The translations under genes and the position numbers were made by a program. Below the pieces are notes generated by a model. The model was not told the DNA's origin and did not search any database. It saw nothing but the letters and a program-made list of their open reading frames with translations. Positions 42,594-56,204 of a DNA stretch of 64,000 bases are shown piece after piece (positions within the stretch are counted from its first letter, which is position 1; the number at the start of each line of letters is the position of its first letter). The DNA is from a virus (Duplodnaviria > Caudoviricetes), in IMG/VR virus record IMGVR_UViG_3300028805_000074, positions 32,001 through 96,000 of that record; one strand, given 5' to 3'.

Positions 42594-45500
42594 CTACGCC
42601 GCCTGCTTCAGCCCGCCGTCGCTCTCGGAGGCGCTGCCCTCGGAGCCGCCGTTAGACTTCTTCCCGTTCATCTCAGCGTTGATCTTGCGGTCGAGCTTGG
42701 CGAGGTCGGCCTTGGCGCGGCGCAGCTCATCCTCCTTGGGCCACGTCTGCTTCAGCAGTTCGGCGAGCTGGCGGATAGTCACGTTGTTGTCGGCTATCCA
42801 TCGCTGCCAGTCGGCGATGCGGCGGGGCAGCTCCTGCAGACAGCGCAGGGCGTACTCCGCAGCCAGTCGGGGCGAGAGATGGGAGAGCTTGCCGTTGTTC
42901 ACGGTGTGCAGGATGCGGTTGCCTTGCAGCGAGAAGAGGTTGGTGTATTCCATCGACTCGTTGCCGTCGGCATCGTGAATAATCTGCTCGTTGGTCTTCA
43001 CCATCAGGTCGAAGCCGTAGAGCGAGCCGACTTTCAGGCGGACACCCTGCGTGCGGGCCGTCTGCTCGATGCGCCACAACCGTTCACCGAGGGCCTTCTG
43101 CTGTCCGGCATAGTCGAGGGGCTTGCCGTTGGCATCGGTCTCTGGCACGGTGAAGCCGTCGAGCACCAGGGCGTTCAGCACCTCGCCCTGTTCGCCCAGC
43201 TGCTTCTGTGCATCGTACTGCTGCTGGTCGGCCTGTGCGTCCAGGACATCCTGCTTCAGCCGCTCCACGTCCTTCTGTAGCCTGTCGCGGCGCTCCTCTG
43301 CCTGTCGCTGGTCGCGGTGGAAGTTCTTCTTCTCCACCTCCAGGGCGGCAATCTTCTTGTCGAGCTTGGCACGCTCCAGCAGGTCGGTATTGCCCGAGAG
43401 GATAGCCATATACTCGGCGAAGTTCATATTGCCCTTTTCGTCCATCGAGCCCTCGTCGAGGGTGCGCTTGCCTAACTGGCCTTGCTTCAGCTGCTGGATG
43501 AAGGTCTGCTTGCAGTGCAGCAGATTGAACTTATAGGCATCCAACGACCGCTTCACGGCGTAGATGATTACATCCACTTTGTTGTCGCCGTAGTCGCGGG
43601 CTATCACGTTGCCTTTACGCACTGCCCTGCCGTCGCGCTGTTCCAGGTCGGCGGGGCGCCAGGGGGTGTCGAGGTGATGCACCGCCACCACTCGCTCCTG
43701 GGCGTTGACCCCCGTGCCGAGCATCGAGGTAGAGCCGAAGAGGATGCGCACGTCGCCGTCGTTCACCTCGTGGATGAGCTTCTTCTTCTTCGTGTCGCAG
43801 CGGGCCTCCTGTATGAAGCGTATCTCCGAGGCGGGTATGCCGTAGTCCTCCACCAGCTTGCGCTTGATCTCTTCATAGATGTTAAACTTCCCATCGTTCT
43901 GCCAAGTCGAGAGGTCGCTGAAGATCATCTGCGTACCCTTCACGGCGTCGTACTTGTGATAGTACTGGGCTACCATCTTGGCGCACATCGAGGCTTTGCT
44001 CCGTGGGTGGTCGCCATACGCCGGGTCAATCAGCCGCATGTCGAGACTCATCTTTCTCGCCAGGTCCGTTGCATACAGCATCTTCGCCATCTCCTGCTGC
44101 TTCGTCGGGTTGTTGATACCTATCAGCTTGAAGTCGCCCGTCTCGGCAAACCGCATCAGCGTGTGGATAAACTCCTCCTGGTCGGGGGTCGGCTCGATGT
44201 GCATCAGTCTGGCGTACTTCTCGGGCCGCTCTATGCCTACGTCCTTCGCCGTGCGGTAGTCTGTGATTTCATTATAGAACTGTGCCAGCTCCGGCACCTT
44301 GATGAAGTAGCGGAAGCGCTCCTTCAGCACAATCTGGTTGGTCAGTCCGAACTCATACTCCTGCGTCTTGCGGGTGAAGATAGCGGCCCAGGCATCGAAA
44401 CAGGTGATGCCCTGCTTGGCCATAGCCTGCGGTCGCAGATAGCGGAACAGCGAGTACAGCTCCGTCAGACTATTCGTAATCGTCGTACCACTGAGGAACG
44501 TCGCGCCGAGGTCACGCCCCGTGCGCTGCTGGATGGTTCGTATAGCCATGAGCAGATTGTAGGCACGCTTCGAGCCCTCCGAATTGCCTAAACCTGCCAC
44601 ACGGTCGTGACGGGTGGTGAAGCCGAGGTTCTTGAACTGGTGACTCTCATCAATGAAGATGTGGTCGATGCCCATCATGCGGAAGTCCACCACGTCGTCG
44701 GTGCGCTTGCGAATAGAGTATTGCAAATCTTGAAGTTTCGATTGCAGGTTGGCTTTCTTCTTCTCCAGTCCGCGCTTCAGTCGGCTCGATACGCTGTCAT
44801 ACGACCCGTAGAGTGCGCTCAGGCTCTCGTTCAGGTGGTTCAGCTCCTCACGGATAACGTCGGCCTGCACCTCGTCCGACTGCGGGATGAAGCCGAACTG
44901 GTCGTGGCTCATGATCACTACGTCCCAGTCGTTGTTCTTCATGCGATTGAAGAAGTTCTCACGCTCCTTGCCTGAGTAGTCGGCATGCTTGGCATAGAGC
45001 ACATGGGCCTTGGGGTAAGCCGTCATGTAAGTCTCGGCGATGGCAGCCACGTTGGCTTTCAGTCCGATGATCATCGGCTTGTGGCAGAAGCCCAGGCGCT
45101 TCATCTCGTGGGCGGCGAGGCACATGATGAGCGTCTTGCCGCTGCCTACCTCATGGTCGCAGATGCCACCGCCGTTCATCGTGAGCATCCAGATGCAGTC
45201 CTCCTGACTCTTATACAGACCGCCACTCACCTTCTTGCCGTCCTTATACACGGGCTGCGGTATGCCGTACTTCGCCTCCAGTCCTGCCCAGTCGATGCCA
45301 GGGAACCGCTGGTGGCTTCCGTCGAACTGCGGCTTCACGTGGCAGTTGAACAGTCGGTTATACTTCTCGGTCAGTGCGTCGCGCAGCTCCTTGGGCTGTC
45401 GCAGCAGCCAGTCCTGATAGCCCTGTCGGATTTCCTCAATCAGCGTGTTAGCCTTCTGCGTAGCCTCCGGGTCCTCGTCCTTGGCATAGCTCTTGCCCTG

Positions 45501-47711
45501 CTGAATCTTGCGACCCCGCTCGTCGCGGCGGTATTTCATCATCTTCGGGCAGGAGTTCAGCAGCGCATGCTGCAGCAGCCCCATGCCGTCAATCGGCTGG
45601 CTGGCCTCGCTACTCACGGCATACTGCGTATAGATTTTCTCGTTGTATCTGTTGCTGGCACAGGCATACTGGTCCAGGTTGCGGTCATACTTCACCGTCA
45701 CCTCCACCTTTGCGCCGTAGTCGTTGCCAGCCATCGAAAAGAACTCCGAGGCGAAGTCTTCGTAAATCTTGCAGTCCACCCATCGCTCACCCAGATTGAA
45801 GTCCAAATCGTCGAAGGGGATAGGCTCAGGCACTGCCTTCTTCAGTGCATCCAAGGAGCGGCGGATATAAGCCTCCGTCCTGTCTCCCCGTTTCGCCACG
45901 TCTGCCGTTCCGTGCGCTTCCTCTGCCGCCGTTCCGTGCTCGGCGGTAGTGCCGCCGAGGTCAGGGTACTTCTGCAGGATAGCATCTATCTTCTCAATCA
46001 CATTCCCGCTGATAAAGCGAGCCTTGATTTCCCACTCCTCGCTCAGGGGGTTATAGTATATCTCCCCGTCCAGCTCGTCGCATATCTCTTCCTCGCTCTT
46101 GCCAGTCAGCGCAGCCATATAGCGCACATCGGGCTTGCCGTAGTCGTTCAGGCTCTGCGCCAGCGCCTCGTGAGCATCCGTCACGCTGTGCATCTCGTCC
46201 GTCGAGAAAGCCACCGGCCTGTCGAAGATGTCAGCCTTGCGCCATTGTCCGTCCTCCAGTATCTCCAGTGTCAGCAGTTCTGCGATATTGCCAAAGCCTT
46301 TGATAGCCTTTATGAACTTCACGTTCTCCGGCTTGTTCAGCGGGCCCCATTTTTCAACGAAGCCGTCATAGAGGCGGTTTATCTCCTTTCGGAGTTCCGG
46401 CTGCTCAGCCATCTCCTCCGCTTCCTTCTTGTACAACATCTGATAGTCGAAGCAAAGCTCTCGCAAAATACTCTCCTTAATAGTCATCCTCTCCTCCTTG
46501 CGCTCCTGCTTCTCGCTCTTGGCCTTCTCCTTGCCCTTTTGGTCGTCACGCCCCCCGTCTTTCGGAGAGGGGTTGGTGGTGAGGTTTTTCTTCAAGTCCT
46601 TCGCCAGCACCTCGCCCAGCTGCTGTGCAATCCCCTGCACACCGCCCTCATGGCGATACACGAAGCCCGGCTTGCCGTAAGCATCTGTGCCAGCTATTGT
46701 TTCCGTAGCAATCACCCGCTCCGGCCACATATCGAAGTACATATTCGTCGGGCATCCCCCGTCCTCATACTGCGTCAGTAGCATTGTCTCTTCCTCGGTC
46801 AGTTCACCTCGCTTCGAGTCCTTCTGCATCACTAAGAGGTCGGTGCCTACCTCGGTGCCGCTCTCCTTGAAGAGATTGTTCGCCAACCGATACGCCCCGA
46901 TGAGCCGTGCATACTTCAGCGCCTCGCCCAGCTGCTCACTGTCACGGTTCAGGTAGTTGCTGGTGATGATATACGCCAGCACCCCACCCTCTCGCAGACA
47001 GTCCAGCCCTTTCAGCACATAGTAGCGGTGGATCATCTTCGCCGCCTCCCTGCGCACCTGGCTCTTCGAGTTCGTATAGTCCGGATCGAACACGCGGATG
47101 TCGCCAAACGGAACATTCGTGCTCACCAGGTCATACTTGCCCAGCTCGCTTGCGGGGATAGTCTCGAAGCCCTTCACACGGATGTCGAACTTCTCTTCAG
47201 TGGAAGCCTTTTCGAGTATTAAGCCTGTCAGCAAGTCCTTCTCGTAGGCCACGCATTTCAGATTCACGCCGTCTGCACGTGCCATAATCTCAGCATGGCG
47301 CATGAAGATACCCTCACCAGCAGCAGGGTCGAGCATCATACCCTGATAATGCTGAAAGTCGTATCTGCTGTTGAGCTTACCATAAAAAGCCTCGCTGATT
47401 CGGAACAGCAGCATAGCCGTTACGTCGCCCGGTGTATAGTACGCCGTCAGCGTGCTCGCCTTCAGGCTCTCCACCCATGCCTGATATTCCTTGTCGCTAT
47501 TGCTTGCGTCTCTCAGCAGCTCATGCAGCCACGCGGTATCCTGGTAATACATCATGTCGCTCTTGCTCCATGCCGTCGGCTCCAGCGGGTTCAGCACGAA
47601 TGTCATACCCCCGAAGCCCGTGTACTTATCCATCACCGATGCGTCGCCGTTCCCGGTCAGCGCATACTCAATAGCCGCGATGTTGTCTCTCAGTCTTTGT
47701 AATTTGCTCAT
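42594..47711 (-). CDS. DarB-like N6-adenine methyltransferase / SNF2 helicase fusion
   Basis: MTase motifs DPAAGEG and TNVPFG; helicase HEVGSGKT, DESH, SGT, GTGVNAQ, WRPADLEQRDGRAVR. Confidence 0.9.
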   Translation of the reverse strand: MSKLQRLRDNIAAIEYALTGNGDASVMDKYTGFGGMTFVLNPLEPTAWSKSDMMYYQDTAWLHELLRDASNSDKEYQAWVESLKASTLTAYYTPGDVTAMLLFRISEAFYGKLNSRYDFQHYQGMMLDPAAGEGIFMRHAEIMARADGVNLKCVAYEKDLLTGLILEKASTEEKFDIRVKGFETIPASELGKYDLVSTNVPFGDIRVFDPDYTNSKSQVRREAAKMIHRYYVLKGLDCLREGGVLAYIITSNYLNRDSEQLGEALKYARLIGAYRLANNLFKESGTEVGTDLLVMQKDSKRGELTEEETMLLTQYEDGGCPTNMYFDMWPERVIATETIAGTDAYGKPGFVYRHEGGVQGIAQQLGEVLAKDLKKNLTTNPSPKDGGRDDQKGKEKAKSEKQERKEERMTIKESILRELCFDYQMLYKKEAEEMAEQPELRKEINRLYDGFVEKWGPLNKPENVKFIKAIKGFGNIAELLTLEILEDGQWRKADIFDRPVAFSTDEMHSVTDAHEALAQSLNDYGKPDVRYMAALTGKSEEEICDELDGEIYYNPLSEEWEIKARFISGNVIEKIDAILQKYPDLGGTTAEHGTAAEEAHGTADVAKRGDRTEAYIRRSLDALKKAVPEPIPFDDLDFNLGERWVDCKIYEDFASEFFSMAGNDYGAKVEVTVKYDRNLDQYACASNRYNEKIYTQYAVSSEASQPIDGMGLLQHALLNSCPKMMKYRRDERGRKIQQGKSYAKDEDPEATQKANTLIEEIRQGYQDWLLRQPKELRDALTEKYNRLFNCHVKPQFDGSHQRFPGIDWAGLEAKYGIPQPVYKDGKKVSGGLYKSQEDCIWMLTMNGGGICDHEVGSGKTLIMCLAAHEMKRLGFCHKPMIIGLKANVAAIAETYMTAYPKAHVLYAKHADYSGKERENFFNRMKNNDWDVVIMSHDQFGFIPQSDEVQADVIREELNHLNESLSALYGSYDSVSSRLKRGLEKKKANLQSKLQDLQYSIRKRTDDVVDFRMMGIDHIFIDESHQFKNLGFTTRHDRVAGLGNSEGSKRAYNLLMAIRTIQQRTGRDLGATFLSGTTITNSLTELYSLFRYLRPQAMAKQGITCFDAWAAIFTRKTQEYEFGLTNQIVLKERFRYFIKVPELAQFYNEITDYRTAKDVGIERPEKYARLMHIEPTPDQEEFIHTLMRFAETGDFKLIGINNPTKQQEMAKMLYATDLARKMSLDMRLIDPAYGDHPRSKASMCAKMVAQYYHKYDAVKGTQMIFSDLSTWQNDGKFNIYEEIKRKLVEDYGIPASEIRFIQEARCDTKKKKLIHEVNDGDVRILFGSTSMLGTGVNAQERVVAVHHLDTPWRPADLEQRDGRAVRKGNVIARDYGDNKVDVIIYAVKRSLDAYKFNLLHCKQTFIQQLKQGQLGKRTLDEGSMDEKGNMNFAEYMAILSGNTDLLERAKLDKKIAALEVEKKNFHRDQRQAEERRDRLQKDVERLKQDVLDAQADQQQYDAQKQLGEQGEVLNALVLDGFTVPETDANGKPLDYAGQQKALGERLWRIEQTARTQGVRLKVGSLYGFDLMVKTNEQIIHDADGNESMEYTNLFSLQGNRILHTVNNGKLSHLSPRLAAEYALRCLQELPRRIADWQRWIADNNVTIRQLAELLKQTWPKEDELRRAKADLAKLDRKINAEMNGKKSNGGSEGSASESDGGLKQAA

Positions 47712-47927
47712 ATCTCGTTGTCGTTTTAGTTTCACTTATCATTCCTGAACGCACCATCTCTATCCAGACGGTCATAGAGGTGTCCCCAGTCAGCCTCCGA
47801 CACATAGTCAGTCATAAGGTTCACCACTGCCATTCCGCTGTCACCATAAAGATCATCTATCATCTCGATAACCTTAGCTCTTTTCTTTTCGTTGTCCATA
47901 ACCCGTATTGTTTTTGATTGTTAAATG

Positions 47928-47959
47928 TTTGGTCATTCCAAAAATTGTTCGTACCTTTG
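47928..47959 (+). promoter_or_regulatory. Bacteroidetes primary-sigma promoter
   Basis: -33 TTTG (47928-31), 20-bp spacer, -7 TACCTTTG (47952-59). Confidence 0.75.
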
Positions 47960-47964
47960 CCGCA

Positions 47965-48156
47965 GATTTGCGGCGAAAACCTGAGAGGGCGGCGTTAGCA
48001 GCACCACCCTCCGAGGTTAGAAGAACCTCGACCGGATTCGGATCCGGAAGAGTCGCATCTTCCAAACCCTAAAATAAATTACTTCTATCATACTCGTAAT
48101 TTTTTTAGGTGGACAATGAGCCATACGGCCCGGGAGCGACTTTCGCTCCTTTTTTT
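47965..48156 (+). ncRNA. candidate ~190-nt structured small RNA
   Basis: own promoter, four abutting hairpins (47985-48063), terminator GGAGCGA-CTT-TCGCTCC-T7; no credible ORF. Confidence 0.6.
48133..48156 (+). terminator. rho-independent terminator
   Basis: 7-bp stem plus T7. Confidence 0.75.
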
Positions 48157-48180
48157 ATGACATGTTCTTCCGCATGGACT

Positions 48181-48411
48181 TTATATGCAGTCTGCAAACA
48201 TGATGTCGAAATTACTGCGGGTAACACCGCCGCCTTCCTTTGCAAGGCAGCAGCAACGGCACCCAAGCACGTCATAGTGGTAGTCTTTCAGTGCCTGTGC
48301 GACCACATCCAGGTTCTCCCTTGTGCAGCACACGTCTACGGTCTTTTCGGGATATCCGCTAAACCCGTCACCCATGATCAGTACTTCGTAATGTTTCTTT
48401 TCGTTTGCCAT
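48181..48411 (-). CDS. hypothetical protein
   Basis: ORF in operon. Confidence 0.55.
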   Translation of the reverse strand: MANEKKHYEVLIMGDGFSGYPEKTVDVCCTRENLDVVAQALKDYHYDVLGCRCCCLAKEGGGVTRSNFDIMFADCI

Positions 48412-48423
48412 AGTCGTTTCGTT

Positions 48424-48795
48424 TTAGTCGTTAATCACTTTCACCTTCATGCCCTTCTTTTGCAGGGAGTCGTTGATTAGGTCTGTCACATTCTGCTTGT
48501 CGCCGATGGCAGAAAGCACCAGCCCGCAGTCCTTTATCAGTGCGTTGACGACACCAGCTATATAGCAGGGGAAGTTGGTATAGGCATCTTCGCGGAATTT
48601 CTTCATCAACGTTTCCACCGTGTACGTTCCATGCAGTTCGCCGGCATCGTCGGCATGTCTCAGCGTGACCTTGTAGAGCCATCGTCCCTTGCTGTCGTCG
48701 AGCCACTTGATGCGCTCACACCACTTCACACAATACAGATTGCCGAACATCATCATCTGTTCAGATGTTGCCTTAACCTTAATGTCACTCTCCAT
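48424..48795 (-). CDS. hypothetical protein
   Basis: ORF in operon. Confidence 0.65.
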   Translation of the reverse strand: MESDIKVKATSEQMMMFGNLYCVKWCERIKWLDDSKGRWLYKVTLRHADDAGELHGTYTVETLMKKFREDAYTNFPCYIAGVVNALIKDCGLVLSAIGDKQNVTDLINDSLQKKGMKVKVIND

Positions 48796-48809
48796 AGTCT
48801 CAATTCGTT

Positions 48810-49451
48810 TTAGATGTCATCAAATGTCACATTCTCAATGTCCGTCTTGTCAACCTCCATGTAGTCGCACCATCCGTCGCCGGCCTCGATGCCCTCGATG
48901 AACGCCTTGCGCTCGGTCTCAGTGTCGAACTCTCGTATCACGATACTGCCGTCACCGTCGCGGCACACCTCATGCAATCCCTCGAAGTCCTGCTCATCGT
49001 AGCGGCTGGTAGCACGGGAACCGAACACCACGGCGCACTTGAATTTCTGCGGCTCCACCGGCACCTCGTCCAGCCCCAGCTCCCGCTCCAGACACTCATA
49101 GACGTTGAGCATCGTGAGATGCGCCACGTCGTCGTCGAACAGTTCACGACAGTCATACTCACCCTCGCACTGCATCTTGAAACGCGGATGCTCGCCGTCG
49201 ATGAAGCTGACAGAGAATACGCAGCAGTCCTCGCCGCTGTTGTACTTGTCGAACCAGATGACATACGGACAGTGGTTGTCGCGGAAGTCCTCGTAGTTCT
49301 CCACATGTTCCTCGCCCTCGTGCTCCTCCAGATACTCCTCCTCGTCGGCAGGACAGAACTGCACAAGCACGATGTTCTCGGCTCTCATTTTCTCGATGAT
49401 GCGCTGGCGCACCTCGTTCACCAGCGGATAGATGTCTTTAATGTGTCTCAT
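48810..49451 (-). CDS. acidic hypothetical protein
   Basis: C-terminal REFDTETERKAFIEGI motif. Confidence 0.7.
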   Translation of the reverse strand: MRHIKDIYPLVNEVRQRIIEKMRAENIVLVQFCPADEEEYLEEHEGEEHVENYEDFRDNHCPYVIWFDKYNSGEDCCVFSVSFIDGEHPRFKMQCEGEYDCRELFDDDVAHLTMLNVYECLERELGLDEVPVEPQKFKCAVVFGSRATSRYDEQDFEGLHEVCRDGDGSIVIREFDTETERKAFIEGIEAGDGWCDYMEVDKTDIENVTFDDI

Positions 49452-49491
49452 ATAATTCTTGTTTAATTCTTTATAATTTCTTTCCCATCAA

Positions 49492-50892
49492 CTAAGCGGC
49501 CTGTCGTGCAGTCCGCTTAGTCTTCTTAGTAGTCACCTTCACATAGCTCGTCCTGTCGAACACATACCGCACAGCCGTGCCGATATGCACACGTCTTGTT
49601 CCGTCGGCCTGCTCGTGGCAGCGGCATAGCGTAGCGCCCTCGTCGCCGACACTCACGCCCACCATCAGGTGCAGCATCGTCCAGTCGTCGTCCGAGACTG
49701 TCACCTCGTCGTCGATGTCGCCCTGACTGAATGCCTCCGTCACGCCGCCCAGCTGTTGCAGGATGCGGGCCTTCGTCAGCACGTTCATCTTGCGGTTGAA
49801 GTCGGCCACGTTGATAGTCACCCGTCCGAAGCGCTCCTGCCAGGGAGTAGGCTCCGTCAGCTGCAGCCAGTCGTTGAAAAGGTCGGCGGCAACGACCACC
49901 TCTCTCACCGTAGGCCCGTCCTCCCATGTCACCGATGACTCGCCGTAGCGGTTGGTCTTGATGGTGAACGTCACCACAGGGAACTTCCCCTTCAGCACCG
50001 TCTTCAGGTTACTCACGGCCACCGTCTGCTGCTCTGCGTCGGTCAGTCCCCGGCTGATAGTGATTAGCTTCGGCGCCCACTCGTCTATCAGCGGCTTTTG
50101 CTCCGCCTCAATCCTCGCCTTGCGCTCCGCCTCGATGCGCTGCTGCTCCTGCTGCTCGTGGCGTATCTGTGCCAGCATGGCATCGAGCTGCTGCTGATAC
50201 ATCTCGCCGTAGCCGCATGGCATATAGAAGCGGCTTATCATCGGGTCGCCCATGGGGCTGCCCAACACGCAGTAGCTTGGCGAGCGGAACATCACTACCT
50301 TCGCCACGCGCTTGGCCTTGCGGATGCCGTTGGCAGGGTCGGCACTCTGTATCGTCTCCCATCCGCCCCACGGTCCGCCGCCGGGCATCTCATAGTTCAG
50401 GTCGTTGTTCATCAGCTGCTCGTCGCTCAGCTCCACGATAGTCTCTACCATCACCACCGCTTCGTCGGCCAGTCCATTCGTCAGCACCTCACGCAGCAGC
50501 GGCTCCATACGGGCAAAGACCATAGCCGCCTTGCCAACGTTCACCTGCCGTGCATAGATGAAGTCGCCCGCCTTCAGTTCGCCCGGTCGCTTCTGCTTGT
50601 TGCGCCGTGCCTGCTCCAGCACCTCGGCCAGCCGGTTACGTTCGCGCTCCTTGCGCTCCCGTTCCTCTCGCTCCCGGCGCTCCCGCTCTCTCCGCTCACG
50701 CCCCTTGGCACTCTTGCGGTAGTCGCCGTTCAGCTCAGCCTTGCGTTCCTCATACTGCTGCTGCATCTCCTGGAACTTAGCCGTAGCCTCCGGATCGTTA
50801 GGATTCCTGTCCGGGTGCATCTTAATCACGAGCCTTCTGTGCTCCTGCTCCAGCTGCTCGTGGGTCATACAGTTTGCAAAATATTCCACCAT
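49492..50892 (-). CDS. J-domain protein with possible LPD29-like C-terminal domain
   Basis: MHPDRNPNDPEATAKFQEM (HPD J-domain); LKGKFP...F.I...SVTWEDGP resembles LPD29 (from recall). Confidence 0.75.
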   Translation of the reverse strand: MVEYFANCMTHEQLEQEHRRLVIKMHPDRNPNDPEATAKFQEMQQQYEERKAELNGDYRKSAKGRERRERERREREERERKERERNRLAEVLEQARRNKQKRPGELKAGDFIYARQVNVGKAAMVFARMEPLLREVLTNGLADEAVVMVETIVELSDEQLMNNDLNYEMPGGGPWGGWETIQSADPANGIRKAKRVAKVVMFRSPSYCVLGSPMGDPMISRFYMPCGYGEMYQQQLDAMLAQIRHEQQEQQRIEAERKARIEAEQKPLIDEWAPKLITISRGLTDAEQQTVAVSNLKTVLKGKFPVVTFTIKTNRYGESSVTWEDGPTVREVVVAADLFNDWLQLTEPTPWQERFGRVTINVADFNRKMNVLTKARILQQLGGVTEAFSQGDIDDEVTVSDDDWTMLHLMVGVSVGDEGATLCRCHEQADGTRRVHIGTAVRYVFDRTSYVKVTTKKTKRTARQAA

Positions 50893-50927
50893 GATAATTT
50901 TCGATTTACTGATCTTCGATTTACTAT

Positions 50928-51899
50928 TTATGCCGCCTGCTGATAGTGCTTCAGCAGTGCCTCCCGCAGCCTTTCGGCAAACGTCGGCTCCTGTGCTCGT
51001 TCCGTATGCTGCGGTATCTCCGCAGACCTCGCCGCCTTAGTAGCCTTGCTCACGCCCTGCGCCTCGCCCTTCAGCCACCGCTCCAGGTCGAAGCGGTCGC
51101 AGTCCTTGCTCTCTACCTTGCAGCCCATGCCGCTGTCATCGTTCACCAGCAGCGGCATCAGCAGCATCAGCGTGTCGGCACTGTAGAACATTACCGGACG
51201 GACATTCTCCACAAACCGCATCGCCGTAGGCTCGAAGGCCAGGATAGTCTGCAGCTTCTTTCCGGCGAAGGTGGCAAACATCTTGTAGGGCATCTGCCCC
51301 ACGTCCAGATCCTGCTTCATCACCTCGTCGCCGTTCCAGTCGCAGTGACTCATGCGCAGCGTCTTGTCGCCACGCTCGCCGTAGAGCCTCACGGAGTACT
51401 GCGGTCCGTCATCGTCCTTATCCATCGTCTTCAGCATGCCGCCCAGCGACGAGTTCCATGCCTTGGCATCCACGTCAATCGCCCAGCCCGTATTCCACGG
51501 CATTACGCTCCGCCAGTGTGGATAGCGGGTGGTCTGCTCCATCTCAGCGGTGGCACCCTGGCCGTCGATGACGCGCACCGTCTCGTTGCCCTGACCATCG
51601 CCCATAATCTCCACCGTCACCGTGCCCTTCATCGCCAGCACCTCCACGGGCAGCGTCCTCGTGCCGTTCACCACCAGCACGCCCTCGCCCAGCTCGCAGC
51701 GGTAGTCCTTCAGCTTCGTCACTGCCAGGATATGCCCGTTGGTAGCTATCATCAGTCCCGTCTCCACCTCGATGGCGGGGTGGGTAACATAATCACGGAG
51801 GTCTTTCTTCTCCAGACACTTCTTCAAGTTCTTCACCATCTTGTCGACCACGAACGTTATCCGTGCCGTCAATGTCATGTTGTCATTCTCTTTTGCCAT
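50928..51899 (-). CDS. DNA polymerase III beta-clamp-like protein
   Basis: IATNGHILAV (cf. VATDGHRLA), RYPHWRSVMP (cf. FPDYRRVLP), C-terminal LLMPL. Confidence 0.6.
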   Translation of the reverse strand: MAKENDNMTLTARITFVVDKMVKNLKKCLEKKDLRDYVTHPAIEVETGLMIATNGHILAVTKLKDYRCELGEGVLVVNGTRTLPVEVLAMKGTVTVEIMGDGQGNETVRVIDGQGATAEMEQTTRYPHWRSVMPWNTGWAIDVDAKAWNSSLGGMLKTMDKDDDGPQYSVRLYGERGDKTLRMSHCDWNGDEVMKQDLDVGQMPYKMFATFAGKKLQTILAFEPTAMRFVENVRPVMFYSADTLMLLMPLLVNDDSGMGCKVESKDCDRFDLERWLKGEAQGVSKATKAARSAEIPQHTERAQEPTFAERLREALLKHYQQAA

Positions 51900-51937
51900 A
51901 GTCGTATATCTTTTTAGGGGTAAATAATTCTCGATAC

Positions 51938-51972
51938 AAAAAGAGCGGCCATGCTTCACAGCAGAGCCGCCC
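51938..51972 (-). terminator. rho-independent terminator
   Basis: GGGCGGCTCTGCTGTGAAGCATGGCCGCTC followed by TTTTT. Confidence 0.65.
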
Positions 51973-52137
51973 CATCAACATTCAAAATCAACTTTACAAG
52001 TTATGAAAAATTCGTTTAAGCCAGATGACCAAAGCGAAGCTCGCTTCGGCTTTGGCATGGCGTAGAATTTTCGACCGTCAGGTCACATAGTGCCCCGCAT
52101 CCCATCGAAGGGCAGGTTAATCCGTGCGGGGCTGTAG

Positions 52138-52557
52138 TTAGATCTTCGCCAGTATCTCATCGAAGTCACACTCACTCTCCCACCACTCCTCGGGAAGGCC
52201 GTTCTCCTCACCGAACTCCTCAAGCAGGTCGACAACCCTGTCGCAGTCCATGGTGTTCCTGTCGGGAATGATGTGTGCCTCGTAGCACTGATTCATTTCC
52301 GCCTTTAGGATATCCAAGTCGCAGCCGTCCATGTTCTCACGGATATAACGGATGGCTCTTCCAAGTGTCGAATTGTCCGGCTCGCTCTCGTTGACGGCCT
52401 CGAACTTGTGGAAGATATAGTGCCCGTCCCTGACGTACTGCCACGGGTCGTCTCCTATCCAGTTGCCCACGATAGTCTTTGCCTGTTCCTCACTCTCCGC
52501 ATCCACCTCGATGCGGCACGACATGGTGATATCCACGTCCACATTAAATCTCCTCAT
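52138..52557 (-). CDS. acidic hypothetical protein
   Basis: IEVDAESEEQA (DpnD/PcfM-like N-terminal pattern). Confidence 0.65.
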   Translation of the reverse strand: MRRFNVDVDITMSCRIEVDAESEEQAKTIVGNWIGDDPWQYVRDGHYIFHKFEAVNESEPDNSTLGRAIRYIRENMDGCDLDILKAEMNQCYEAHIIPDRNTMDCDRVVDLLEEFGEENGLPEEWWESECDFDEILAKI

Positions 52558-52573
52558 AATCGCTACTTGTTTT

Positions 52574-53068
52574 TTAGTAATGATAGTCTATCACCGCACC
52601 GATGTAGAGCTTGCGCCCTTTCCGCATCTTCATGTCGGCGACATACTCTATCAACATGTCGGCAGGCGAAGCATACTCGCACCAGTCCTTGATAGCGAAC
52701 CGCTTGGCTGTGTCGAGGCAGGTCTCGTCGCACATGGCCTTCACCGTGTAGCGCGGCGTGTGCTGCAGCACCGTGTCTGCAGTCACCTTTCCAGCCGCCT
52801 CGCGGATAGCCGATGCCCACCGCTCGCAGAACGTCCTGAGTGCATCGACACCCTTGAACACCAGCGCCTCGCCCGTCTCGTCGAGCACAAACAGATCCTT
52901 CACCGTGTCGGCCAGACTCTCTATACACTCGCGGCGTTCGTCGCCCTTCATCTCGTCGCCGATATAGTCGGCGAAATCCCCGCTGTTCTCATAGAAATCG
53001 CTGGGGCTTGCATACTCGTCTTCGGCAATAGGCTTGCTCGAAATCTGATAAATCTTGCTGTGACTCAT
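52574..53068 (-). CDS. hypothetical protein downstream of the RT array
   Basis: 164 aa, ends LYIGAVIDYHY. Confidence 0.72.
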   Translation of the reverse strand: MSHSKIYQISSKPIAEDEYASPSDFYENSGDFADYIGDEMKGDERRECIESLADTVKDLFVLDETGEALVFKGVDALRTFCERWASAIREAAGKVTADTVLQHTPRYTVKAMCDETCLDTAKRFAIKDWCEYASPADMLIEYVADMKMRKGRKLYIGAVIDYHY

Positions 53069-53083
53069 AGTCGTTACTCGTTT

Positions 53084-53470
53084 TTAATCACACTCGAAAT
53101 AGAATATCACGTTCAACTTATCCTGGAGCTCGTAGAACTCCACCACCAGCCTTTCGTTATCAGGGCACTCCCACGCCTTAAACTCCTGCTTATAGGAGTC
53201 GAAGATGCGGCGGCGGGTGTCCTCCCAATCCTCCGTCCCCGGAACGGCCAGCAGCGTGATGGTCACGCAGTTGTCGCCCCACTTCCAGCGGGCGTCCACC
53301 AGTCCGCTCTCACACTCCACACCGTCCTCGATGACGGTCTTGCGCCCTATCAGGTGGCGCATACCACGCTTGCGGTGGTCGTGTGCCGCGTCGAAGTCCC
53401 CGAATACCTCGTCCTCGAACGGGTCTTCCATCAAGTTCTTGTTGTCAATAGGTGCTTTAACTTTCTCCAT
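53084..53470 (-). CDS. hypothetical protein immediately downstream of the RT array
   Basis: 128-aa ORF. Confidence 0.65.
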   Translation of the reverse strand: MEKVKAPIDNKNLMEDPFEDEVFGDFDAAHDHRKRGMRHLIGRKTVIEDGVECESGLVDARWKWGDNCVTITLLAVPGTEDWEDTRRRIFDSYKQEFKAWECPDNERLVVEFYELQDKLNVIFYFECD

Positions 53471-53496
53471 AATCGTTTCGTTTTTAATCCGTTATT

Positions 53497-53677
53497 CGCC
53501 TGCCTCGCGGAGTGGCATAGCTCTTTACTCGATTGATGATAGGGCAGTGTGGGAAGCACAGACTGAAGCTGGCCCCGCGATAATCTTTCGCGGTTCCAGC
53601 TTCAGACAGGGCTTATCCTGACACTGCCATCTGAAATCGTTCCGCTCTACAGTCGTCATTAGGCTGTATGCGCAGCC
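53497..53677 (-). ncRNA. RT-associated array unit H (hairpin 53543-53628; leader hairpin 53662-53677)
   Basis: scaffold GCCTCGCGGAGTGGCATAG...TGATG / CTGAAATCGTTCCGCTCTACAG on the + strand. Confidence 0.8.
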
Positions 53678-53714
53678 AATGTTCAATGTTCAATGCTCAA
53701 TGTTCAATGTTCTC

Positions 53715-53876
53715 CCGCTCATCATCCTCGGCGCATCGCTCTATCGCGTTGATGATTAACAGCGCAAGAACCCTGGTCTTGACACTGGGAAATGTTCCCA
53801 GTGGAATACCAGGGTCTATGAGCTGTCAAGCTAAAGCGTTGGATGCCTTGCGGCTGTGTAGGGTGCGCTCCCCTGC
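53715..53876 (-). ncRNA. RT-associated array unit G (hairpin 53759-53826)
   Basis: P1 CCGC/GCGG, P2 CATCC/GGATG, conserved GCAT..CT.TATC...TGATG and CTAAA. Confidence 0.75.
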
Positions 53877-54050
53877 CCTGCTATCGGACGTGGCACATGG
53901 TCTTTATCTCGTCGATAACAAACAGTGTCTTGGACGGCGGCCGGCCGGCGTCGTCGGACGTTAGACGGACGACGCCTGCCGGCCGCCGTCCGTTACGACA
54001 CTGTTGCTTTGAAACTCTGTCCGTCTCGCAGGCTCATAGGCTGTGCTGCC
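53877..54050 (-). ncRNA. RT-associated array unit F (hairpin 53921-54005)
   Basis: P1 CCTGC/GCAGG, P2 CGGAC/GTCCG, GTGGCACATGGTCTTTATCTCGTCGAT; 14-bp perfect inner stem. Confidence 0.82.
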
Positions 54051-54140
54051 CGGCTTATTGTTCTGTGCTCCTGCCTTGGGCTTCGCCCGAGACAGTCTGC
54101 ACTCAGCATAGTCGATGCAAGCATCGCTTTGCTTTCGTTT

Positions 54141-54299
54141 GCTCCTGCCTTGCGGCATGGCATAGTGCTTTACTCTTGCGATGGAAAGTGATCCGACGTA
54201 AGAGATGAGTCCTGAGACATAGGGTCAGGACTCATCTCTGTTAAGACGGATCACTCTAAACACTCGCCGCCCTACAGGAGCCTGGCGGTATGCGCCGCC
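54141..54299 (-). ncRNA. RT-associated array unit E (hairpin 54187-54255; leader hairpin 54284-54299)
   Basis: P1 GCTCCTG/CAGGAGC, P2 GCGGC/GCCGC, CTAAACAC; 15-bp perfect inner stem. Confidence 0.85.
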
Positions 54300-54336
54300 C
54301 TCGTCCAGTAGACTGCGGTAGCTCCGCAGTCCCTCC

Positions 54337-55467
54337 TTATCGCTTCAGCTGCTTAGCCTTCTTCTCCTGCGCCCACTCCTTCATCTTCGCCTTGATGTCG
54401 ATGCCGTTCTCTTCTATCATCTGCTTCATCAGGCCGAACAGTCGCCAGCCCTCGCCGTCGGAGGCATAGGTCAGCGCAGCGTGCTCCAGCATCTTCATCT
54501 TGTCGCGGCCAGGCTCATAGAAATCATTGTCCTTTGGGAAGGTGCATCCGTGGAAGCGCAGCAGGTTCTGCATCGTGGCGTAGGCTCCCATACCCTTGTA
54601 GGCATCCTTCCACTCAGCTGTCTGCTTATAGTTGCCGCTGTTGCAGCCCCACACCCGGGCCTTGTTGAATGCCATCACTGCCTCGTAGAGTTTCTGCGGG
54701 GTCTTGGCGCTGTGGATAGCGGCCTTCAGGCGCACCATCGGCCACACCAGCTTCTTCTCGATGTCGCTCACGAACACGTTCTGACGGAAGAACTTGATGT
54801 AGGGCACGCCCTTGCACTTGTGCGTCTGGCGGCTCTTGGCATCCTCACGCATCTGGACGATGTAGTCCTCGGCCATCGTCACGGCCAGCTCGCGGTTGAA
54901 CCAGCGGTTACGCGCCTCGAAGTTCTCCATATCCTTGCCGTAGAGCTTGGCTTGCACGCGCAGCTCCTCCACCAGCATCTCCCACTGATAGTCGTAGCCG
55001 TGATACTTCAGCCACGATGAGAACCCGCCATAAGAGGTCAGCCCGTGGAACACCTGGCTCATCACCCAGCGGCGGAACAGCGAGCGGTTGGGCACCGTGC
55101 CACCCTTGCGGATAGCAGCCAGGATGGGGTCGTCGTCGCTCACGGGCACGGCCTTTCCGTCGCCGGTCTTCATCATCATCTGCTCGCCGCCGCCGGGAAT
55201 CTGGATGGCGAAATACTTACTCGGGTCGATGCCCGCCGCCTTCAGTGCGTCGCCCCGCTTCGATACGGGCAGGTAGATGTCGCCCAGCCCTGAGTCCTTG
55301 CCGATGGCCATGCCGCCCTTCACTGCATGCTCATGCTCGCCGATGGCGAACTCCGTGCCGCACACCGGGCACATCACGCGGGTTTCGCCACCGTCCGTCA
55401 CGGGGATAGTGCGCTTGCTCTGGTTCTTCACTGTGTTCTTGCTCTCGTTGGTCTTCTTTGTTGCCAT
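54337..55467 (-). CDS. 376-aa protein embedded in the RT-associated ncRNA array (candidate partner or effector)
   Basis: same strand as the RT, flanked on both sides by array units; N-terminal CPVC...HxH; no recognisable family. Confidence 0.8.
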   Translation of the reverse strand: MATKKTNESKNTVKNQSKRTIPVTDGGETRVMCPVCGTEFAIGEHEHAVKGGMAIGKDSGLGDIYLPVSKRGDALKAAGIDPSKYFAIQIPGGGEQMMMKTGDGKAVPVSDDDPILAAIRKGGTVPNRSLFRRWVMSQVFHGLTSYGGFSSWLKYHGYDYQWEMLVEELRVQAKLYGKDMENFEARNRWFNRELAVTMAEDYIVQMREDAKSRQTHKCKGVPYIKFFRQNVFVSDIEKKLVWPMVRLKAAIHSAKTPQKLYEAVMAFNKARVWGCNSGNYKQTAEWKDAYKGMGAYATMQNLLRFHGCTFPKDNDFYEPGRDKMKMLEHAALTYASDGEGWRLFGLMKQMIEENGIDIKAKMKEWAQEKKAKQLKR

Positions 55468-55517
55468 AATCTTTTTGTTGTTTTAAAGGGTTAATAAAAA
55501 AATGTTTCTTGTTTGTT

Positions 55518-55616
55518 GCTGTCGCCTTCAGCCTGGCACATAGCGTTATAAGTCTGATATATTCTGCTTTACGAAAAAGCGGTGCTTACTGCGATAGCGT
55601 CAGGCTGTGCGGCCTG
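55518..55616 (-). ncRNA. degenerate/short RT-array unit D
   Basis: GCACATAGCGTTATA scaffold remnant, short CTGCTTT/AAAGCGG hairpin, leader hairpin CAGGC-TGTGCG-GCCTG. Confidence 0.5.
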
Positions 55617-55626
55617 CCAGAGTTTT

Positions 55627-55806
55627 CGCCCGCCTTACGGCTTGGCATAGGTCTGTATCGTTTCGATGTCGCAGCTCGTGACGGTCGTCTGAACCAGAGC
55701 AGGAGACGGACCGCCGGGCGGTCTCCTGCTAAGGGCAAGAAGACTTATACACGAGCTCACTAAACATAGCCGTCCTACGAGCGGTGTCGGGCAGTATGCG
55801 CTGCCC
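55627..55806 (-). ncRNA. RT-associated array unit C (hairpin 55673-55757; leader hairpin 55789-55806)
   Basis: CCTT-ACGGC...GCCGT-CCTA; TGGCATAGGTCTGTATCGTTTCGATG; CTAAACA. Confidence 0.85.
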
Positions 55807-55807
55807 T

Positions 55808-55987
55808 GCATTGCCTTGCGGCGTGGCACAGGTCTGTATCGTGTCGATGACAAAGCCGGTCATTGCCGGATGTCGGACCTCGAACGAAGGCTGGTCATGG
55901 AACAGCCTTCATTCGAGGTCCACATCCGTTTGCAAACCTGCTTCTAAACACGTGCCGCCCTACAATGCCCATACTACTGTGCGGTAG
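55808..55987 (-). ncRNA. RT-associated array unit B (hairpin 55853-55943; leader hairpin 55974-55987)
   Basis: P1 GCATTG/CAATGC, CCTT-GCGGC...GCCGC-CCTA; TGGCACAGGTCTGTATCGTGTCGATG; CTAAACAC. Confidence 0.87.
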
Positions 55988-55997
55988 CGAAAGAAAT

Positions 55998-56178
55998 GTC
56001 TGCTCCTTGCGACGCTGCACATCGCTATAACTCGTCGATGTAATGCGGCGTGTGCCAGAACAGGCCGCCAGGATCCATCCACGGTAATAACCTGGACGGA
56101 TCCAGGCGGCCAGCTCTGGTTAGGCACGCCGCACACTCAATCGTGTCGCCATAAGCAGACTAAACTCTGTGCGGAGTT
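55998..56178 (-). ncRNA. RT-associated array unit A, 26 bp after the RT stop (hairpin 56044-56133; leader hairpin 56163-56178)
   Basis: P1 GTCTGCT/AGCAGAC, CCTT-GCGAC...GTCGC-CATA; GTCGATG. Confidence 0.85.
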
Positions 56179-56204
56179 GTTATCCATCCTTGCGCCGAAA
56201 ACCC

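Follow-up and report, generated by a model that had tools for sequence, protein, structure and literature searches.

What is the role of a protein that lacks any recognizable domain and is encoded in the middle of an array of structured RNA units, next to a reverse transcriptase (RT), in a phage genome? The gene in question occupies positions 54337-55467, on the minus strand, of the window, that is, of the whole stretch of 64 kb analysed here, which covers bases 32001-96000 of a virus record 122,574 bases long and 100% complete according to CheckV. The gene is intact, with 376 codons, an ATG start and a TAA stop. The initial annotation, made from the sequence alone, presented it as co-oriented with the RT, and so it is, both 54337-55467 and the RT gene (56205-57821) lying on the minus strand; it further proposed that the product was the dedicated partner of the RT and the array. 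As to identity, there is hardly any room for doubt: the product of 54337-55467 is the large accessory protein (bORF; RTas337, or cluster 337) of a phage-borne UG27 RT system. This assignment rests on the matches of bORF to the PADLOC model RTas337 (E 5e-108, with residues 30-366 aligned to profile positions 2-315 of 316), of the adjacent RT to RT_UG27 (PADLOC, E 4e-204, residues 5-434), and of a further part of that same RT to RTas346. Against a retron model, the RT scores only E 1e-8, to be compared with 4e-204 on UG27. Pfam, NCBIfam and PHROGs contain no family for bORF; homologues number 962 in one search, and a second search returned 594 clusters at 50% identity. One of these homologues (P0018, 70% identical) is named 'ubiquitin carboxyl-hydrolase' by NCBI, a name that we did not adopt; it has no support from Pfam, NCBIfam or fold comparison and looks like a misannotation.

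So what was already known of this family? The protein described here adds one more member to a family that PADLOC already covers and that was published in 2022 and genetically tested in a 2026 preprint. Clusters 337 and 346 were described as domain-less proteins that accompany RTs of the UG27 class in Bacteroidetes and Firmicutes phages of the gut, and a putative structured non-coding RNA (ncRNA) was reported alongside these RTs (Mestre et al., 2022, PMC9226505). In the Minerva preprint of September 2026, clusters 337 and 346 were renamed bORF and sORF, respectively, ncRNA arrays with units of ~150 nt were described for UG27, and the RT, sORF and bORF were each found to be required for cDNA in E. 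coli (bioRxiv 10.64898/2026.09.22.753630). According to the same work, the central hairpin of every unit is copied to single-stranded DNA (ssDNA) of 50-100 nt, the copying starting at the AUC of the motif AUCN7UANAG and stopping after UUYA; deletion of bORF or sORF abolishes cDNA, a result obtained in just two systems, those of Bacteroides sp. 2-1-16 and Blautia hansenii; and AlphaFold 3 predicts a complex of the three proteins, neither helper having a recognizable domain (bioRxiv 10.64898/2026.09.22.753630). The published UG27 systems (Bacteroides sp. 2-1-16, Blautia hansenii, Alistipes putredinis and Phocaeicola coprophilus) have in common with the window the bORF family, the RT and the sORF module, as well as arrays of ~150-190-nt units with AUCN7UANAG and UUYA, a location in phages, and a bORF without a recognizable domain. 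The differences are equally clear: the window bORF is only ~40-42% identical to the bORFs of tested or named strains (loci L031 and L049), its clade has an RT-sORF fusion and places most of the units downstream of bORF, and the host environment is probably the ruminant gut rather than, as for the published systems, the human gut.

Does bORF ever occur apart from the RT? The initial annotation had named gene-neighbourhood analysis as a check on the proposed partnership. We compared 94 related loci (15 viral contigs and 79 bacterial genome assemblies), 16 of which are uninformative, the sequence upstream of the bORF homologue being shorter than 1.4 kb; in all 78 informative loci, the UG27 RT adjoins the bORF homologue, and none was found without the RT. 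The order of the genes varies: RT-array-sORF-bORF is seen in 63 loci, an RT fused to sORF and followed by bORF in 11 loci and the window, sORF-bORF-RT in two, and bORF-RT-sORF and RT-bORF-sORF in one locus each. Along with membership in the RTas337 family and the deletion phenotype in two homologous systems, this association in 78 of 78 loci bears out the proposal of a dedicated partner for the RT and array, a reading that is correct but not new. The accompanying suggestion that two genes farther downstream also belong to the module is not supported, both 53084-53470 and 52574-53068 being missing from most canonical UG27 loci. The former (128 aa) was rejected as a core component, with homologues just after the array in loci of the window's phage clade only (L001-L004, L008-L010 and L017), and so was the latter (164 aa), the position of which varies: in several relatives it precedes the RT.

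How closely are the proteins of the module connected? In the window, 56205-57821 (minus strand) encodes in 538 codons both the UG27 RT, with a YSDD active site, and the sORF: the RTas346 model (sORF, cluster 346) matches at RT residues ~450-537 (E 6e-23), as an in-frame C-terminal fusion, and there is no separate sORF gene. The fusion is common to 11 loci (L001-L009, L017 and L018) and the window, and every locus with a bORF at least 54% identical to that of the window has the sORF fused in frame to the RT. Such fusions, of 526-579 aa, make up at least 120 clusters in the protein database, so that an assembly artefact can be dismissed. The main texts of the two publications on UG27 make no mention of the fusion (PMC9226505; bioRxiv 10.64898/2026.09.22.753630), and RTs outside the range of 380-450 aa were replaced for the tree building in the latter. 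By the usual gene-fusion argument, this architecture indicates that RT and sORF are likely to touch each other. In the Phocaeicola coprophilus locus (L031:6507-8071), the stop of sORF (159 aa) overlaps the start of bORF by 4 nt, an arrangement that suggests translational coupling. Thus, between the RT-sORF fusion and the sORF-bORF overlap, all three proteins are tied together. Longer fused forms of bORF, of 659-2000 aa, were searched for and none was found, and the sORF module is absent from seven of the longest members of the bORF family (390-468 aa). A complex prediction for the RT-sORF polypeptide with bORF (score 0.27, mark 0.32) gave no verdict and is counted neither for nor against such a complex.

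The RNA units flank bORF on both sides. All of those described below are on the minus strand, and the boundaries of the two halves of the array are approximate. The upstream half (55500-56180) comprises units 1-4, the first three with exact AUCN7UANAG motifs at 56039, 55848 and 55667, and the downstream half (53495-54336) comprises units 5-8, with exact motifs at 54182, 53916, 53753 and 53537. The four units per side that were initially annotated are therefore recovered as three exact and one degenerate upstream of bORF and four downstream. The seven exact motifs, between 53523 and 56039, all fall within the two intergenic stretches that flank bORF; the entire 64-kb window contains 12 matches, compared with 4.6 expected, and 12 was reached in none of 100 shuffles. 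Both intergenic stretches fold into long hairpins, every motif is preceded by a long hairpin, and UUYA, or the variant UUGA, is located 5' of each unit stem, with the exception of unit 4. This unit is a degenerate mini-unit (~55520-55625) with a one-mismatch motif at 55558, UAACG in place of UANAG, no UUYA and a central stem of 5 bp; it may be vestigial or the source of a very short product. Small hairpins with CGCAYA loops are found between the units. Between units 7 and 8 (~53677-53712, minus strand), there is also a short tandem 7-nt repeat (GAACATT-like) in about five copies.

Is such flanking of bORF a peculiarity of the window? Of 68 loci, 48 have a unit motif that starts 80-213 nt past the stop codon of bORF (for example, L031:8071-8210), so flanking by units is a general trait of bORF genes. 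It is the distribution that differs, canonical UG27 loci having about five units upstream of bORF and one downstream; in the window's clade, one to five units precede bORF and three to seven follow it. The hairpin that had been noticed just after the bORF stop is real, GACUGCGG-AGCUA-CCGCAGUC at 54331-54311 (minus strand) forming a stem of 8-9 bp with a 5-nt loop; it is not conserved in close relatives, in which the stop is followed directly by the small CGCAYA-loop hairpin with which the next unit opens. The idea that this hairpin might be a conserved terminator or a signal for processing was rejected: it is missing at this place from L001-L009, L017 and L018, no U-run was found on its 3' side, and terminator prediction did not call it.

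The wider genomic setting is that of a gut phage. Nearly all sampled words of the UG27 locus are present in sheep-gut metagenome runs, from which this DNA may derive, the record is nearly identical to contigs of these runs, and its closest genome matches are Bacteroidales and Prevotella metagenome-assembled contigs; the record belongs, like UG27 systems, among the phages and prophages of gut Bacteroidota or Bacillota. On the minus strand, the locus is accompanied by genes for an ArdC-like antirestriction/metallopeptidase protein (57934-59004), a protein with DnaJ and LPD29 polyvalent-protein domains (49492-50892), a product with a weak DpnD/PcfM-like match under the Pfam cut-off (52138-52557) and a 1713-aa DarB-like methylase and SNF2-helicase (42594-47735). 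The region 42594-59004 looks like the anti-restriction or early arm of the phage, a gene context in keeping with the anti-defence role that Mestre et al. put forward (PMC9226505). No terminator-like site was found on the minus strand between 59041 and 53400; the ArdC-like gene, the RT/sORF gene, the upstream units, bORF and the downstream units probably form one early transcript. Farther upstream, a 54-nt repeat with a GC-rich hairpin (CCCCGCCCC...GGGGTGGGG) is present at 59023-59076 and 60982-61035, the two copies being 78% identical; the copy at 59023-59076 has a terminator-like score on the minus strand and is located just upstream of the ArdC-like gene.

What can be learned from the bORF protein itself? 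All motifs quoted in the initial annotation are found in it, namely CPVC (33-36), HEH (45-47), LFRRWVMSQVF (130-140), YQWEMLVEEL (160-169) and WKDAYKGMGAYATMQNLLRFHGC (286-308), and the last three of these fall in the best-conserved blocks of the family. In an alignment of 121 family representatives, the near-invariant residues are G79, I119, L130, R132, R133, Q138, G157, Y160, E168, D179, R186, A289, K291, G294, N301, F305, H306, G340 and N354, and many more aromatic positions are conserved in over 80% of the sequences. Among blocks of 25 residues, conservation is highest across 126-175 and 276-300. The AlphaFold2 model, a structure prediction of the kind envisaged at the outset, is confident (pLDDT 90.1) and consists of a disordered basic tail (1-27), a beta-rich N-terminal domain that includes CPxC (28-125) and, from 126 to 376, a helical core into which a beta-hairpin is inserted at 215-232; the conserved positions are mainly basic, amide or aromatic and lie within this core. 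The fold offers little guidance: no solved or viral predicted structure is matched above background, be it by the full model or by the N-terminal domain. A Foldseek search of the full model against PDB and BFVD returned nothing at E <= 1e-3 (best E 0.064), and the best VIA-align matches, in a wide and a second-look comparison, have Z of 7.7 and 6.3 and are generic helical bundles, those at Z 7.7 extending across residues 151-279. The comparison with Cas1 of Cas6-RT-Cas1 (Z 5.4 over 80 residues) is within noise. With the N-terminal domain modelled alone (pLDDT 74.6), the best Foldseek match is a Pol I zinc-ribbon subunit at E 0.085 and the best VIA Z is 2.6. A PDB profile search with bORF yielded nothing below E 0.038, and an ESM Atlas search no usable match.

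A specific question concerns the CPVC...HEH segment, which had been taken as a possible metal site. The cysteines are conserved, C33 and C36 being kept in 105 of the 121 representatives; the histidines are not, with H45 and H47 kept in only 40. The hxCPxCGxxFxI segment resembles the first knuckle of zinc-ribbon and zinc-knuckle domains (Pfam Zn_ribbon_4 and relatives; the Rad50 zinc hook), and a Pfam scan of the 121 representatives with E up to 1 produced weak zinc-ribbon matches on CPxC only, in 27 sequences, at a best E of 0.004. Unlike these domains, bORF has no second conserved Cys/His pair, nor any other conserved Cys or His in the N-terminal domain among the 121 members, and so departs from the canonical four-ligand zinc ribbon with its two conserved CxxC/CxxH knuckles per domain. 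A four-cysteine site made of C33/C36 and C218/C308 was rejected, as the two pairs do not co-vary. With the histidines poorly kept and C218/C308 lacking co-variation, a complete zinc site within a single chain is not established. The knuckle is absent from parts of the family: some clades lack CPxC, the family match beginning near residue 70, and in the clade L089-L095, short bORFs of ~210-230 aa lack the entire N-terminal domain. These core-only forms still adjoin the RT, the sORF and a unit in which the motifs are unchanged; L091 and L092 have, between RT and sORF, a single mini-unit (L091:6200-6330; L092:6050-6200) with a CGCACA hairpin, AUCN7UAAAG, the same loop motifs and a central stem of ~9 bp. 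This hints at a link between the N-terminal domain and long hairpins or multi-unit arrays.

What, then, could bORF contribute to the reaction? Loss of cDNA upon deletion of bORF is equally expected from a role in priming, in RNA processing or in protection of the product against host nucleases, and the requirement is known from systems that are ~40% identical and have a separate sORF, not from the fused-sORF clade. With somewhat less than even confidence, we favour the possibility that bORF binds nucleic acid as a non-enzymatic subunit of the RT holoenzyme. In such a subunit, the helical core, with R132, R133, Q138, Y160, R186, K291, N301 and H306, would grip the conserved internal-loop scaffold that is common to all units and would define where the template begins and ends for the RT-sORF polypeptide, and the N-terminal beta domain with the CPxC knuckle would serve as an accessory clamp that is absent in some clades. 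The qualifier 'non-enzymatic' derives from the lack of a match to any known enzyme family or informative fold, that is, from absence of evidence, and the near-invariant E168, D179, D113 and H306 could, judging by their conservation, form a catalytic site, which would go against it. As a whole, the explanation that combines the bORF identity, the requirement for cDNA, the nucleic-acid-binding subunit and a single transcript is the best that we can offer and is, on balance, probably right.

Could bORF instead act after synthesis, by binding and protecting the finished cDNA hairpins, perhaps as an effector that uses them, so that the loss upon deletion reflects degradation of unprotected ssDNA? 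The preprint measured steady-state cDNA only, in minipreps after 16 h (bioRxiv 10.64898/2026.09.22.753630), and the conserved basic and aromatic surface suits ssDNA or a hairpin as well as RNA. The rate of evolution is compatible with such a role as well: at non-fused loci, the RT shares a median 62% identity with its counterpart in the window, sORF 44% and bORF 40%, so the helpers diverge faster, as expected of a protein with variable ligands. These observations have to be set against the AlphaFold 3 prediction in the preprint, which puts bORF in a complex with RT and sORF, against the tight coupling with sORF, by overlap or as neighbour of its fusion, which fits a part of the holoenzyme, and against the absence of any effector-like domain in bORF from the family libraries, PADLOC and the Pfam scan of the 121 representatives. 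On this evidence, we consider a protective or effector role unlikely. To return to a holoenzyme subunit, there is a bolder version in which bORF is a template-boundary and loading subunit with a new fold, the CPxC half-knuckle of which is completed in trans, yielding a zinc-linked multimer on each unit; the partner in this bridge, which would be similar to the Rad50 hook, would be a second bORF or the RT-sORF polypeptide. We regard this version as distinctly improbable; if true, UG27 would be the first bacterial or phage RT with start and stop set by dedicated non-catalytic subunits.

Another way in which bORF might be essential for cDNA is as a protein primer, the hydroxyl of a conserved Tyr, Ser or Thr starting the DNA as in AbiK, DRT9 and DRT10. 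UG27 belongs to class 2 of the UG/Abi RTs, a class with several protein-primed members, no UG27 primer has been described in the literature, and suitable residues exist, with Y160 kept in 118 of 121 sequences and Y223, Y290 and Y296 conserved too. In the known cases, however, the priming residue sits in the RT itself, and the preprint shows discrete 50-100-nt ssDNA bands from protease-free alkaline-lysis minipreps (bioRxiv 10.64898/2026.09.22.753630), with which, as a mild argument, a covalent adduct of 42 kDa would be hard to reconcile; priming by bORF seems to us very unlikely. The same low standing has to be given to an RNA-processing nuclease that cuts the array transcript into units or makes the 3' end that primes reverse transcription: the near-invariant D113, E168, D179, H306 and K291 might together make up a metal-dependent site, the array somehow has to be used one unit at a time and the CGCAYA-loop hairpins between units could mark processing, but no known nuclease, polymerase or other enzyme family or fold matches bORF in Pfam, NCBIfam, PHROGs, PDB profiles or fold searches, processing is unreported in the preprint (bioRxiv 10.64898/2026.09.22.753630), and acidic and histidine residues are few compared with basic and aromatic ones.

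The comparison with other RT systems puts a helper of this kind into perspective. DRT2, DRT9, DRT10 and AbiK, of class 2 UG/Abi, represent a related RT lineage and make non-genomic DNA from an adjacent structured ncRNA. To our knowledge, the RTs of these systems synthesize DNA without dedicated helper proteins; the SLATT protein of DRT10 is an effector, and all of them are host defence systems with long or repetitive products. UG27 differs from the other class 2 UG/Abi systems in that it is phage-encoded, needs two helpers and gives rise to many short hairpin DNAs. Retrons are similar to UG27 in that the RT copies a hairpin-forming part of an ncRNA into short ssDNA and an accessory protein is encoded alongside. 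The accessory proteins of retrons are effectors and are not known to be required for msDNA synthesis, and each retron RT has, as a rule, one template.

So what does this locus mean for the UG27 family? In itself, the bORF gene adds little, the family, the link to the UG27 RT and the requirement for cDNA being already in the literature and in PADLOC. The pattern of conservation provides targets for mutagenesis, namely C33/C36, R132/R133, Y160, E168, D179, K291 and H306. The minimal bORF core is defined by the clades in which the zinc knuckle, or the N-terminal domain as a whole, is missing, and the RT-sORF fusion is a natural clue to a probable contact between the two parts.
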